Assembly (NCBI GenBank): GCA_051294375.1
Contig: CM119271.1
Location: 11,997,620-12,061,619 of the forward strand
Origin: Paraspadella gotoi
Lineage: Eukaryota > Animalia > Chaetognatha
Reading direction: 5' to 3'
Length of the DNA: 64,000 nt
Below are positions 10,996 through 16,620 of this stretch, in pieces. Both the position numbers and the translations under genes were made by a program. How positions within the stretch are numbered: position 1 is the first letter of the stretch; every line of letters starts with the position of its first letter. The notes under the pieces were generated by a model that saw nothing but the letters and a program-made list of their open reading frames with translations, was not told the DNA's origin and made no database searches.

Positions 10996-11336
10996 GCCTC
11001 ATCTCATCGATTCTCTTTTTTTCTTATTTTTTGTGAGATCGAGTGTTCCTGTGTATTTGGTTGTTTTTTTTTTCTAAGTGTTTCTACGTCTGTGCGAGTC
11101 TGCCTAATCTGCTTTTAAATAAACAGAAGAATAAAGCAAAACGACACTTCATTTACAGTAGTTTCGAAAAAACAAATTCTTATTACGTATTAACTACAAT
11201 ACATACAAAACGTTTCCACAAAAATTTTATTATTTCAATTATGTTATTTTTTTCCCCGTCTTGCAAAAGAATTTAATTCAATCCCTTTGCCAACCCCCTT
11301 CTCTTCTCATTCCTTTTAATCCCATCCCTTCTAATC

Positions 11337-14300
11337 CTATCTCTTCTCTTCCAAGTCGAGCACCACTGGCGAATGCCCAATCTCCTCCAAGAATCTCGCC
11401 AGATCGACTTTGCTGATTCCCGTCGTCGCGTCGTTGCGCAGCGGATGAAAATAAACAAAAGGGAATCGGTCTTCCTCATCGGCGCCGCCGGGAGCCAAGG
11501 CGGCGTCTAGCAGCAGCGTCACGGCGCCGCCGGCGTCGTTGACTAACGCGAACGGCGTCACGCAGCCCTGTTTGACGCCTAGCGTGGCTTCGAGGACGGA
11601 CTCGTCGGCGAGACGGAGCCCGCCGGGCGCGGCGACGGCCCGCGCGACGGCGTCGAGGCGAACCTCGCGATCGTGAGTCGCCGTCAGGAGATAGAGTCGT
11701 TTCTTCTTGTCCTTGAGGAAGAGATTCTTGCCCACTCGGCCTGGCACGGGCAACGAGGCCAAATGGGGCATCATGGCTTCCACGGTGAAGACCTCCGGGT
11801 GACGGATGGTCACGAATTCCATTCGCAGCGACTGGAATCTGGCCAAGAGGTCGTCCGAGTTGAGGAACGTCGTCGTTGTTGTCGTTGTCCCTTTTGAATT
11901 CGAAGACGCGACGGGCGATGGCTTCGTTTTCTCCTTTTTAGACTTTTCGTTGTCCTGGTGTACAAAATTAAGGATAACTGGATTTTTAAATTAATATTAT
12001 TTGTTTTTGGCCTTGGCCGTATAAAATTAAAGAAATATCAAGAAAATGTAAAGTTTACATTATGGCAACGGAGAGACATGTGTGATGCCCGGGATGTGAG
12101 GCATCTCCCGACAGCTGGCGCTCAGGACTTTGGACTGAAGTGACACACCCCATTTCACTGGCGTGTTTATGCCGACACCATCACACTTAACCAGCGTGAC
12201 CGTGAGGGGATTGAACCCGGAATCCACGGTTGGTGAAGGAGTACTTAGCTGTCCAAGCCAAAGGGACAAGCTGAATTTCACCAAGCTATATGGGAGGCGA
12301 ATTTAGGATTCGCCACAACATTTTATTAAAAAAATCCAATTTTTTTTGCACGCAAGATCAAAACCATACGTAGTATCACTACTTCCATCAGCGCCGTAAT
12401 AGCGCACTGGGCTAACGCTTAACATCCGAAGCCAATGGTACCGGGTTTGAGCCCTGGGAGGAATGATCCTTTCAAAAGAGAGACGAGGCGGTTAAACTAC
12501 CGGTAGCAAGCCTGAAGGCAAGGTAACTGACGGAAAAATCTTCCAGACCCACTGGGCAGTGAGCACACTCAGTGGCTATTCACGGCACGGCGACCCTCTT
12601 TCCTATCGGTCACTTCGCTTACTAAAACAATTACTCTGAAAAACTACTACATTACGATTTTAAGAATCTCCACTGTGTACTATTACTGATAGGCAATGAA
12701 TAGTATTTTTATTTCAGTAAAACTTTTCAGTCGAGAGAGAGATAAAGAACCTCTCACCCGGAGTTTTAACTCTTCCTCGCACCAAAGGAATTCGCCAATC
12801 TCCTTCCGAAACGCGGGGTGACTCTGCAGAGTCTTGAACCATCGATTTAGGCAGACGAAAGGTCGACGGAGCGATGGGGAGAGGGTGTGCTTGTAGAGGA
12901 AGAGAAGATTGCAGAAGACGGAGACGTCGGCCAAAGTCACGCGATGACCCACGAGAAAGGTTCTGCGGAGAGAGAGAGAGAGAGAAAGGGGGGGGGTACG
13001 GGCGATGAGTTAAACTTACCAAAGCTTCTCAGATTTTTAAGATGTGACAGTGTGTCTACGAAAAAGGATATTGTGAAGAGACAGTAATTATTGTTATGAG
13101 TTAATGACAGAACCGTTCAATATAACAGTCCACCATAATTGTAAAGAAATGAACTGAGATCTCCTATTTCTTAAAATATGAATACATTTTTTATACTTTG
13201 GATTATATGACAAAGAGCGCCGAACAATGGGTTAAATAAAACCATTCCCTTATAAATTGATACTGGCAAAGATTAACAATGAATTATGAAATATGAAAGG
13301 TGGATAAAGGAAAGAGACTGACGTATGACACATTTTTTTCCGCGGAAAATGGTCACAAGATCTTCAAAAAGGTGTCATTCTGTTCGTATTTAAACGTTCT
13401 TAAAAAAAAATCTTGCAAAGACTTTTTCAAAACATCTCGCTTCTCCCAGGGGCGTCAAAGTGCCACGAGCGTCAAATTTATAGATTTTTGACAATTTTCT
13501 ATATTTTCTTGTGATAATAGCCAATTTTGAATCATTTTTAAATGATATTTTATGATTTATTAGATTTATTCCAATAAAAAATCTTTCTAAGATTATATTT
13601 GCTTTAAATCAGTATCATTAAACCGGAAATAATTCCGCAGACCGAAGTGACTCTGAAAAAAACCGTTTTATTTTGATAAAAATTAAACTTAAGAAGTTTG
13701 ACAAAAAAAAACAAAAGAAAGCTAGTCAATATTGTAATTTTATTTATTTAAATATATATATATCTAATAATTCAATTTTTTTAATGTTTTTTTTTTTTAA
13801 CAAGATGACACACTGAAACCGCCGCTAAAAATAAATTGTCATTTGTAAACCAGTCAAGATTTTTAATCAGAAATATTTTTTTTCTTTTTTAAAAACCAAA
13901 ATCATTTAAATATCCAAATTTCATATTGATAGGTTATGATTTAACTTGGCTATGGGCAAAGAAAAATTGGTTAACAATTGTAGTTCATTTTAAAACTAAT
14001 TTCCAAGTCAAATCAAAACCAAATCAATATAAAATTTAGATTATATAAATTGTGGCTGCGTGTGGCGTGACCGTTGAGGGAGAAAACGGGCTTGACGTTT
14101 ACGGCCATGGATTTGATATCGCGTTTCACTTTTCCTGGTTTCTCGAGAAAAAGAACGCGACGACGATGATGAAGACGAAGAGAAACGTGAACTCGGCAAA
14201 TATCCTGATTATATTTTAAATGTACCTTAGTCAGGGGCAGTTGCATCCGATGTTGTACGGTTTTAAGACTGACAGTTTGTTTATAATTTACTGGCCTTTT

Positions 14301-15735
14301 TATGAATTATGGACTTAATTATAGACTTAATTATGAACTGTTTTAACCTCGAATTTGTAATAAACAAACATTTGAAAACACGATCGTTGCCATCTTGAAA
14401 GTCAGCCAGAAAGTTGAGCAACTCAAATAATTTTGGTTTACTACAAAGGGCGATTTTTTTTCTAGAGGCGGGTTTCATTGTAAATACAACAATACAAACC
14501 CTTGTGCCGTTATATGCAGAGTTTGGTATTACAAAACGGCTGGAACATTTTCAGACTTCGTCGTCTGAACCTTCAAAAGTCAGAAAAGTTTTTCAGCGCT
14601 TCTTTCTTGTCAACAAACGATTGAAATAAGAAAATTACGGCTCATACTGTCGTTGTCCAGCTGACAAAATTATGGAAACTCGGAGAAACGAAGCGAATCC
14701 TTGATTTACGTGAAGATCTCTCTCTGCGACAAGAGCAAGGATGAACGAGATTTGTACAAGAATTTTGATGTCACACATTTCTCAGCTATGGTCCTTTTTT
14801 ATGATTTTTTTTGTCGCCATAAAACTTTTGTTATTATCCATTATTATTCTACTTTTTAAAACTTGGTCTTTGCCAGTTTTCTTGAAGCAATTAAAAGTAT
14901 TTGAATCTGTGATCTTAACTTTTCGCTTTTAAGAAAAAGTTCATGCAAATAAATTAACTTCCGGTTTTAATATATTTCTAAAAATTCCCAATAACGGTTT
15001 TGAGTTTATTTAATTTATGATTAATATTTCAGATAACAGAGTAAAACAGATAATACAAATTTTATCATTATTTTTATATATATCTAAAAATATTTTCTGA
15101 AAAACCATGGAAATTGCTGAAAATCAATTATTTTGACGCCCGTGGCCTTTAACGCTTCTGGAAAGGCGAGATATTAAAAAAAATGTACGAAAATACATTT
15201 ATTTTTTATAGCTCTAAAATACGAAAAGAATGACACCTTTTTCATAACTCTATTGACAATTTTCAGCGGAAAAAAATGTGTCTACTGACGTAGTATGTCA
15301 GAATCGATGACTCAATCAATAAATTCCAAAGAACCTGTAGAGTAAATGCCGATCGATCATCATCAGCAGAGCGAGAGAGTCCCGCTTAGCCTTTCCCACG
15401 ACGTCGGCTTGGGCGGAGGTGATGCCCAAGAGCGGGAAGACCCAAGAGCAGACGGGAGGGAGAAGTTCTTGTTCGGCCAGGTTGAGCCACTCGAGGACTT
15501 CCGTCTTCTCATCGACGTCGCGTCCTCGCAACGTCTCGTCCGCGAGACGGTAGGCGACGGCGTTGGGCTCGAAGAGGACCGCGCCGTCGTGGAGGACCAG
15601 TTTGGGCAGACGCCCTTCGTCGGTATCGTTCGCCGAGAACGTCTCAAAGTCGGCGCCGCCGATGGCGCCGGCGATGAGCGCCTTTTGCGACCGGAAGTGG
15701 TCGCGTCGAATCACGAGCGTCCCGATCTTCGCCAT
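11337..15735 (-). CDS. Fusion protein (407 aa): eEF1Bgamma/ValRS-type GST-like domain, K/S/T-rich linker, ProXp-ala (PrdX/PRORSD1-like, YbaK superfamily) aminoacyl-tRNA deacylase domain
   Basis: Exons 15735-15335 (phase 2), 12962-12758 (phase 0) and 11954-11337 join in frame through GT-AG introns. GST part: GTLV..RSQKALIA, FEPNAVAY, LLPPVCSWVFPLLGI, FLVGHRVTLAD, LNRWFKT. Deacylase part: HPEVFTVE, KNLFLKDKK, LGVKQGCVTPFAL, FHPLRNDAT. Confidence 0.85.
12061..12314 (-). mobile_element. tRNA-derived SINE-like repeat, family A, copy 2
   Basis: Homologous to 943-1205. The minus strand has a B-box GGTTCAATCCC and a 5' hairpin GGCGAAT-CCTAA-ATTCGCC. Confidence 0.7.
12394..12630 (+). mobile_element. 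tRNA-derived SINE-like element
   Basis: tRNA-like head GCCGTAATAGCGCACTGGGCTAACGC...CCGGGTTTGAGCCCTGG (A and B boxes), followed by an unrelated body. Confidence 0.55.
13317..15295. mobile_element. Old non-autonomous DNA transposon with ~200-bp imperfect terminal inverted repeats (intron 1 of the GST-ProX gene)
   Basis: 13317-13505 (GACACATTTTTTTCCGCGGAAAAT...AAAAAGGTGTCATTC...CCACGAGCGTCAAA) aligns with the reverse complement of 15100-15295. The interior has only decayed ORFs. Confidence 0.7.
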
Positions 15736-16620
15736 CGTCGCATCGATGGATCGAAATCGAGGATTAAAAATTAAAACAAAACTGCAACGTAAAAAAAAAT
15801 GTGAGGCGGAGCCGGAGGCGATCGACAATGTAGAAAAATAGCATAAATAGTAATAAAACAAAAACTAAAATAATTGAATACTCGTTTGGGAAAAAGGAAA
15901 AAAAAAAAGTGAGATCGGTGGAACTGGAAGATAATTGACTCGATGCAAGAAATCGTGAAAGACAACTTTTTGTCATTGAAATCGAATGGGATTTCAAAAT
16001 TTAAATCTCATTACAACTTTTTGTCATGGCCGAAAAACATAAAAAAAATCATTGAAATCGAATGGGATTTCAAAATTTAAATCTCATTACAAAAATTGTA
16101 ACATTACACGTAAATCAAGCGCGTAAAACATAAAATTGTGCGAACATTTTAATCATTAAATTAAAATTGAAATTGAACGATTTGACGAAAACTTGAGATA
16201 ATTTAACAGCGCACACTCACTCATTCTCAATCTCTCTCTCTCTTTCTACCCTTTTTTCTCTCTTTCACAATCAAACTATCAAAATATTCACAATAGATAT
16301 ATATATATCTTATCAACTAAACAAGTTATCAATCTAATTTTGCATAAGGGAAATTTTCGGCAAACTGAACGCTTTGTCTTCAGCTTAGGCTTAGCCGTTA
16401 CATTCATAATCTTCATCAACGAAATGAAGTTTCGTTTCCGCTATGCCTATTACCTAATTGCCCATGGCTCTTGTCTTTTCGTTGCGATAATTACGGACCG
16501 CGGGCCCGGACAAAGTTGCAACACTTTCACGAATGTTTTTCAAGTTTTATTATCAATAACACATTGTTAAATATATCTATTATGATTAACTATCTCCCCC
16601 TTCTTTTTCTCTCTCCTCCT

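Follow-up and report, generated by a model that had tools for sequence, protein, structure and literature searches.

The arrow worm Paraspadella gotoi has a gene in which a GST domain of the eEF1Bγ type is joined in frame, by splicing, to a ProXp-ala domain of the kind that edits Ala-tRNA(Pro). The gene is on the minus strand of a stretch of 64,000 nucleotides (positions 11,997,620 to 12,061,619 of contig CM119271.1, assembly GCA_051294375.1), which we call the window and whose own numbering is used throughout. The fusion is real, spliced, conserved and lineage-restricted, and the fused protein itself almost certainly exists. Both domains are already known, and comparable fusions of a scaffold with ProXp-ala exist in databases. 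By analogy with ValRS, we give about an even chance to the reading that the protein is an Ala-tRNA(Pro) deacylase docked on eEF1B.

A spliced three-exon gene

The gene has 3 exons, 15735-15335, 12962-12758, and 11954-11337, of 401 + 205 + 618 nucleotides (nt). Joined, they make 1,224 nt in a single reading frame, encoding 407 amino acids (aa) and a stop codon. Transcript evidence comes from a single sequencing run, X1, which is presumed to be RNA and is possibly from the genome's own sample. The features are listed below, with P0161 denoting a relative that carries the same fusion and pLDDT the predicted local distance difference test score of its structure model.

Exon 1, 15335..15735, minus strand: 401 nt, coding for aa 1-133 with 2 nt over; eEF1Bγ-type GST domain, its N-terminal subdomain and first helices, with α2 deleted
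Intron 1, 12963..15334, minus strand: 2,372 nt, GT..AG, phase 2
Exon 2, 12758..12962, minus strand: 205 nt, aa 134-202; C-terminal subdomain of the GST domain
Helix aa 171-181, 12821..12853, minus strand: aligned to human eEF1Bγ N186-N196, which contacts eEF1Bα in 5DQS
Intron 2, the fusion junction, 11955..12757, minus strand: 803 nt, GT..AG, phase 0; spliced out in the run X1 contig
Start of exon 3, 11865..11954, minus strand: Lys/Thr-rich linker of about 30 aa, predicted to be disordered; low identity to relatives and low pLDDT in P0161
Rest of exon 3, 11337..11864, minus strand: ProXp-ala (PrdX) deacylase domain, then the stop codon; identified by Pfam, PDB matches, and a table of residues
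K278 codon, 11727-11729, minus strand: in exon 3; the motif KNLFLKDKK starts at K278
GCVTP codons, aa 332-336, 11553-11567, minus strand: in exon 3
H372 codon, 11445-11447, minus strand: in exon 3
3′ untranslated region, 11225..11336, minus strand: AATAAA at about 11226-11231 by signal scan; the X1 contig terminates at 11225

A 1,244-nt contig from X1 aligns to 11225-11953, 12757-12959, and 15335-15643 with 0 mismatches and 0 gaps. Its joint at 11953/12757 leaves out 803 nt with CT..AC ends, which are GT..AG on the minus strand, and the shorter side of the joint is 203 nt. The loose end of the contig at 15335 is, by a comparison made by eye, the reverse complement of the first 30 nt of exon 2, and both exon junctions are spanned by this one contig. 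The original prediction had proposed this three-exon model from the DNA alone and had named the 12758/11954 junction as the place to look for a transcript; the exons are where it put them, both introns are GT..AG, and intron 2 is spliced out with canonical ends. Sequence words of 11300-13000 are present in X1 at a fraction of 0.48, near the exonic share, and intronic contigs are also present, at a depth of 38 vs 255, figures that are no measure of expression. The contig stops short of the first 31 codons and no contig reaches past 15643, so the start Met is placed by the relatives, which share this starting point. Runs X2 and X3, with no more than pieces of 23-35 nt, were not used.

The surroundings of the junction agree with what had been predicted for the ProX exon, namely an acceptor of its own and no ATG upstream: CCAG directly precedes exon 3, and the first Met of that exon is M247, already within the ProX domain. 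Near the end of exon 2 there are 6 GT sites, with phase 0 only at 12758, and ahead of the ProX domain there are 8 pyrimidine-rich AG sites, 3 of them in phase 0, from which the X1 contig uses 11954. The GC content at third codon positions is 0.80/0.68/0.75 by exon. That two genes merely lie side by side by chance is ruled out by the spliced contig together with the fused relatives.

A narrow family of relatives

A search with the ProX exon (70 hits among 7,993 candidates scored), one with the family alignment (56 hits among 7,994), and cluster look-ups yielded full-length fusions (P numbers mark individual proteins). Two profile hidden Markov models find both domains in 14 of 438 proteins, 12 of which are full fusions, the other 2 being ProRS fusions whose GST match is weak. 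The full-length fusions are from JGI and Logan sequences; they form six groups, and their identity is 52-56% with the window protein and 52-79% among themselves. Divided by part, identity to the relatives is 54-57% for the GST domain, 55-62% for the ProX domain, and 19-28% for the linker. The family is narrow, because of the 150 best-scoring hits out of 1.84 billion representatives, 1, P0002, matches the whole profile. Presumably the relatives are likewise arrow worms. Two metagenome scans for DNA of the relatives returned 228 and 597 pattern matches with 0 confirmed loci, and atlas searches, taken as leads only, reached at best 0.82 with P0001 as a whole and, with the GST portion of P0161, scored 0.93-0.95 against GST/eEF1Bγ clusters.

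The codon of the window's intron 1 is where several fragments of relatives end or diverge; three GST-only forms do so near the intron-2 position, and P0102 and P0176 correspond to one half each of the fused P0161. This pattern suggests gene calls made on unspliced contigs. A different break is found in the fragments P0115, P0154, P0155, and P0177, which end just before the GxxxP loop, and it suggests an extra intron in the ProX domain of relatives that the window gene does not have.

The editing domain

The ProX exon matches Pfam tRNA_edit above cut-off (E = 9.9e-22), and in PDB it matches PRORSD1 8huz at E = 7.4e-34 and Caulobacter ProXp-ala 5vxb at E = 4.4e-25. PDB hits at E < 1e-20 are PRORSD1, ProXp-ala, and Atu3699, no YbaK is hit at E <= 1, and there is no NCBIfam match for this exon. 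A ProRS catalytic domain is absent, as a stop codon follows the ProX domain and the ProRS portion of the fusion P0062 has no tblastn match in the window. Residues equivalent to Caulobacter K45, K50, GxxxP, and H130 occur in 7 of 7 full fusions, with K278, G332-P336, and H372 in the window protein, so that the Lys and the GxxxP loop to which the original prediction had pointed are retained. K45 is described as essential in the ProXp-ala family, and K50 and R80 as reading the acceptor stem, neither of these being strictly conserved (PMC10164551). The protein is very probably an active deacylase.

Quick trees were computed after leaving out near-duplicates, ProX matches of <140 profile positions, and GST matches of <175 positions or 118 bits, named sequences excepted. 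In the ProX tree (101 rows, with no other INS family deliberately included), the 9 family sequences are one clade with support of 96 by the Shimodaira-Hasegawa-like approximate likelihood ratio test (SH-aLRT), inside an animal ProXp-ala clade at 99, with the sister group not resolved.

The GST domain

A profile of the family, when compared with PDB, scores human EF1G at E = 2.6e-53 and PRORSD1 at 2.4e-40, followed by the GST domains of EPRS at 3.4e-8, AIMP3 at 1.4e-6, and MetRS at 9.5e-4. Being far nearer to EF1G than to the last three, the domain keeps the eEF1Bγ-type identity first proposed for it. Taken singly, exon 1 has human EF1G 5dqs as its best PDB match (E = 6.4e-17), and exon 2 matches Pfam GST_C above cut-off (E = 5.7e-7) and human EF1G (E = 4e-17). 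The original prediction went too far in having the domain follow eEF1Bγ motif by motif. Compared with canonical eEF1Bγ, 9 of 9 family sequences, the window protein included, have lost α2 from the N-terminal subdomain; exon 1 has no Pfam family at E <= 0.1, and GST_N is undetected there and in P0001 and P0161. In catalytic cytosolic GSTs, α2 helps to form the glutathione site. The fusion's GST domain is likely without enzyme activity.

Structure models are of the relatives P0161 and P0001 rather than of the window protein. The P0161 model, from a 49-sequence alignment, has a pLDDT of 89.4 and a predicted template modeling score of 0.56, with two confident domains and a disordered linker at pLDDT 43-45; for P0001, 6 sequences gave a pLDDT of 35.3. 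Despite the α2 deletion and the undetected GST_N, the P0161 model nonetheless folds a thioredoxin-like N-terminal subdomain. The best structural matches of that model are 5jpo and 5dqs, then 8huz and 1vki, with Z = 28.3 and a root-mean-square deviation (rmsd) of 2.0 over 203 residues to 5dqs_A, Z = 21.1 and rmsd 1.9 with 155 aligned to 8huz_B, and Z = 22.3 and rmsd 2.1 with 164 aligned to 1vki. A homodimer prediction for the P0102 GST domain scored 0.59 vs 0.63 for the control and is used neither way.

In a GST quick tree of 57 rows, with no ValRS GST among them, the 9 family sequences form one clade at SH-aLRT 100, the sister group is not resolved, and the stem of the clade is long at 1.11 changes per site. 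The source of the domain may be a duplicated eEF1Bγ, as first proposed, or a ValRS-type copy. Pfam finds no EF1G C-terminal domain (PF00647) in the window protein, P0001, or P0161, and tblastn of 5 eEF1Bγ proteins against the 64-kb window recovers the GST part only, with no EF1G C-terminal exon. Two other ideas were tried and dropped. One was that, as at lola, the gene has alternative last exons, an EF1G C-terminal exon among them; there is no such exon in the window, which extends 11.3 kb downstream of the gene. The other was an origin of the GST domain from AIMP2, which is absent among the 48 PDB hits of the family profile; 0 family members are among 69 AIMP2-like matches, and the AIMP2 domain PF18569 is absent from the window exons, P0001, and P0161.

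Other attachments of ProXp-ala in animals

Animal ProXp-ala had been regarded in the original prediction as free-standing only, and that view does not survive the search results. Free-standing forms are found in Pycnogonum, Acanthaster, and fish, but PF18569 occurs together with tRNA_edit in 46 of the 70 hits of the ProX-exon search. These AIMP2-ProXp-ala proteins (P0003-P0051, P0235) are from copepods, barnacles, decapods, stomatopods, and krill, plus Daphnia, with Acartia, Pollicipes, and Penaeus among the genera, and one of them, P0025, matches AIMP2 structures at E = 5.9e-28. Databases auto-name them AIMP2 or PrdX, and we found no description of this fusion in the literature searched. P0191 and P0439, a JGI cluster of two, join the N-terminal coiled coil of AIMP1 to ProXp-ala (4r3z, E = 7.9e-14), a possible third independent tethering that could also be a chimera. 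These scaffold fusions lower the uniqueness of the arrow worm gene and at the same time strengthen the idea of tethering; it is likely that tethering of ProXp-ala arose repeatedly in animals. Since the scaffolds differ, AIMP2 in one and eEF1Bγ-type in the other, the crustacean and arrow worm fusions are likely independent.

Other combinations turned up beside these. Stramenopile-type ProRS and one ProX protein (P0062, P0278, P0299) have a GST_C remnant ahead of ProXp-ala and fall outside the animal clade. Domains of the eEF1Bγ GST type are also seen behind HisRS, behind a DHHA1 domain, of the kind that ends AlaRS, and ahead of fibrillarin (P0203, P0271, P0313, P0306). The eEF1Bγ-type GST may be a mobile tag, or these four may be artifacts of gene models.

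What the GST domain may dock to

For activity, partner, and purpose, we infer the following. The gene encodes one two-domain protein, with an eEF1Bγ-type GST domain at the N-terminus and, past a flexible linker, a predicted Ala-tRNA(Pro) deacylase. The GST domain would dock the deacylase onto the eEF1B complex, and the docked deacylase would strip alanine from mischarged tRNA(Pro) near the place at which eEF1A regains GTP and takes up aminoacyl-tRNA. ValRS is the precedent, as it is docked on eEF1B through its GST-like domain (PMC4394549; PMC10452860), which is needed for binding eEF1Bβ (PMC4394549; PMC9458455) and which is possibly restricted to deuterostomes according to a review (PMC4394549). 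We count in favor of docking on eEF1B that both domains are kept across the six groups while the linker drifts.

In human eEF1Bγ, K147-E155 and N186-N196 contact eEF1Bα (5DQS; PMC9458455), and by alignment, with chain numbering offset by two, these segments map to a loop at aa 132-140 and a helix at aa 171-181. The helix is invariant at 8 of 11 positions in 9 family sequences and ranks 4th in conservation among 190 eleven-residue windows, the top three windows overlapping it. The loop matches the canonical consensus at 5 of 9 positions. These comparisons suggest a contact surface that is kept but retuned, and the surface does not name the partner.

A number of observations weigh against docking on eEF1B as proposed. 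The helix matches the canonical eEF1Bγ consensus at 5 of 11 positions, with Cys for N186 in 9 of 9, and the loop is only averagely conserved (0.78 vs 0.76). Because the helix holds buried residues, and because the Arg, Trp, and Thr in it hardly vary within a wider eEF1Bγ set, its conservation is not specific to binding. The long stem of the GST clade means that the partner may have changed. The other two animal ProXp-ala fusions use scaffolds of the multi-synthetase complex and not eEF1B. On the editing side, the acceptor-stem position R80 (Caulobacter) or N86 (human) is Gly in the window protein and Cys or Glu in relatives, with Gly likewise in the free-standing Acanthaster, Pycnogonum, and plant proteins, and because of this variation the sequence does not settle tRNA specificity. 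Finally, separate GST-only and ProX-only relatives are present as P0102/P0176 and P0105/P0107, no fused form was found for the latter pair, and some relatives may be in a split state.

The multi-synthetase complex is itself a candidate partner, which the GST domain would reach by GST-GST contacts with EPRS, AIMP2, or AIMP3, placing the deacylase beside ProRS, where the crustacean AIMP2 fusion would put it too. Editing next to the enzyme that makes the error is a simpler logic, the human complex is built by GST domains (PMC10452860), ProXp-ala is joined to AIMP2 in most of the long hits (the 46 of 70) and to the AIMP1 N-terminus in P0191, a report places plant ProXp-ala with the plant complex (PMC9425024), and MCP3 of trypanosomes belongs to the complex there (PMC11286415). 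We nevertheless find this docking unlikely, with a GST domain of the eEF1Bγ type whose E-value is about 45 orders of magnitude better than for EPRS, no AIMP2 in those 48 PDB hits, and no family member matching the AIMP2 region of P0025 at E <= 1e-4. It is quite unlikely that the GST domain has no fixed partner complex and merely dimerizes or stabilizes the deacylase or aids tRNA binding, in the manner of the extra domains on plant ProXp-ala and MCP3. Both of those extensions confer homodimers (PMC9425024; PMC11286415), and human EF1G GST domains are classic dimers in crystals (PMC10452860). In the fusion family, aa 67-104 are well conserved, with 20 of 38 positions invariant. We take this segment to lie in the canonical GST dimer face and the eEF1Bα-facing helix to be outside it, yet that helix is among the most conserved segments.

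Another way to be on eEF1B would be as the lineage's own or alternative eEF1Bγ subunit, its C-terminal domain replaced and the proofreader thereby part of eEF1B itself. In its length, and in having a GST domain, a Lys-rich linker, and a compact C-terminal domain in that order, the protein matches eEF1Bγ, and the 64-kb window has no EF1G C-terminal exon, but the long stem and the α2 deletion resemble a derived copy, and we hold the replacement to be improbable. Very improbable is a locus that mainly yields separate GST-only and ProX-only products with the joined form minor or functionless. Split predictions do exist in relatives, and 4 of 7 full fusions have a Met just ahead of the ProX domain; the window gene has none there, the split forms break at the intron-2 position, with P0102/P0176 matching halves of fused P0161 as unspliced contigs would, and fused forms occur in six groups. 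With these set beside it, the deacylase docked on eEF1B is the reading that we favor.

Surroundings of the gene

Intron 2 contains at 12047-12320 a repeat with TG...CA ends and, by eye, a tRNA-like stretch, which has very high depth in X1 contigs; there is a 77% copy at 948-1205, and its Rfam hit is a chance one only, no match in the window reaching the gathering score. In intron 1, 13327-15282 is about 1.95 kb between imperfect inverted repeats (34-nt arms at 88%; 175 nt at 75%) and is likely a non-autonomous DNA transposon. A T-run plus AG at 15782-15792 precedes the ATG by 46 nt, and upstream the end of the ankyrin gene is at a distance of about 850 nt. The window genes recognized by Pfam (ankyrin, ZSWIM8, HAP1_N-like, eIF2A) and further ones resembling Sec61β, NAA40, and ULK are all on the minus strand. 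For the neighboring ZSWIM8, no named sequence is close, the best being from Lineus at 52%. In a tree of 39 sequences and 602 columns, from which proteins of 1,400 aa or less were left out, the one vertebrate with them, ZSWIM8 branches outside the arthropods (99.4) and outside a clade of nemerteans, brachiopods, annelids, and mollusks (96.5), echinoderms being the sole outgroup; this position is compatible with an arrow worm but is no proof of one. The T-run with AG and the genes on the same strand may reflect trans-splicing or an operon-like run.

Novelty and meaning

As the original prediction supposed, the architecture appears undescribed: the full-text literature searched holds no description of a GST/eEF1Bγ-ProXp-ala fusion. 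The main text of PMC12460157 has 0 occurrences of "tRNA" or "synthetase". In the portions available, a 2024 review gives ProXp-ala architectures as free-standing, plant-CTD (with a C-terminal domain), and ProRS-fused only (PMC11295145), a 2020 survey has the ProXp-ala gene absent from the arthropods and worms that it analyzed (bioRxiv 10.1101/2020.09.11.293571), and human ProXp-ala is said to stay outside the synthetase complex (PMC9425024). Ternary complexes, membership in synthetase complexes, and competition with eEF1A are discussed in PMC11286415 and PMC11295145.

The fusion widens the known ProXp-ala architectures. A tentative broader picture, which we would not yet count on, is that arrow worms carry an alternative eEF1Bγ-type subunit with a C-terminal tRNA proofreader, eEF1B being a checkpoint where Ala-tRNA(Pro) is deacylated just before eEF1A loading. 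If true, the arrow worm fusion would join those with AIMP2 and AIMP1 in a set of at least 3 independent bolt-ons of the same editor to an animal translation scaffold, and within that set it alone would target the elongation factor and not the synthetase complex. It would bear on the open question of how a small free-standing editor reaches mischarged tRNA ahead of the elongation factor, and a natural fusion to an eEF1B dock would be a direct test system, in which editing with vs without the GST domain can be compared with eEF1A and eEF1B present.

Comparison with known systems

The fusion resembles eEF1Bγ (EEF1G; 5dqs, 5jpo) in having a GST-like domain and then a Lys-rich linker, with the P0161 GST domain 41% identical over 203 aligned residues. 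Unlike eEF1Bγ, it is without the EF1G C-terminal domain, has ProXp-ala in that place, and has α2 deleted. With free-standing ProXp-ala/PRORSD1 (8huz; Caulobacter 5vxb, 1vjf), it shares the fold, the equivalents of K45, K50, GxxxP, and H130, and the animal clade, whereas the free-standing proteins lack the 200-aa GST domain and linker, and the R80/N86 position in the fusion is Gly, Cys, or Glu. In protist ProXp-ala-ProRS, plant ProXp-ala-CTD, and trypanosome MCP3, too, ProXp-ala or a closely similar INS domain has additional domains joined to it or belongs to a complex (PMC11286415, PMC9425024, PMC11295145); the window gene differs in having no ProRS domain, in being an animal gene, and in the domain that is appended.

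Closer in plan is the crustacean AIMP2-ProXp-ala, where an assembly module with a GST fold and a linker also stand ahead of ProXp-ala, but there the scaffold is AIMP2 (PF18569), a subunit of the synthetase complex, and in the window protein it is of the eEF1Bγ type. The vertebrate ValRS N-terminal GST-like domain is the likeness on which the favored reading leans, being a GST-like module appended to a tRNA-handling enzyme and used by ValRS to dock on eEF1B. The two are likened by function and not by the sequence of the ValRS GST domain, and the cargo differs, a synthetase there and a predicted deacylase here.

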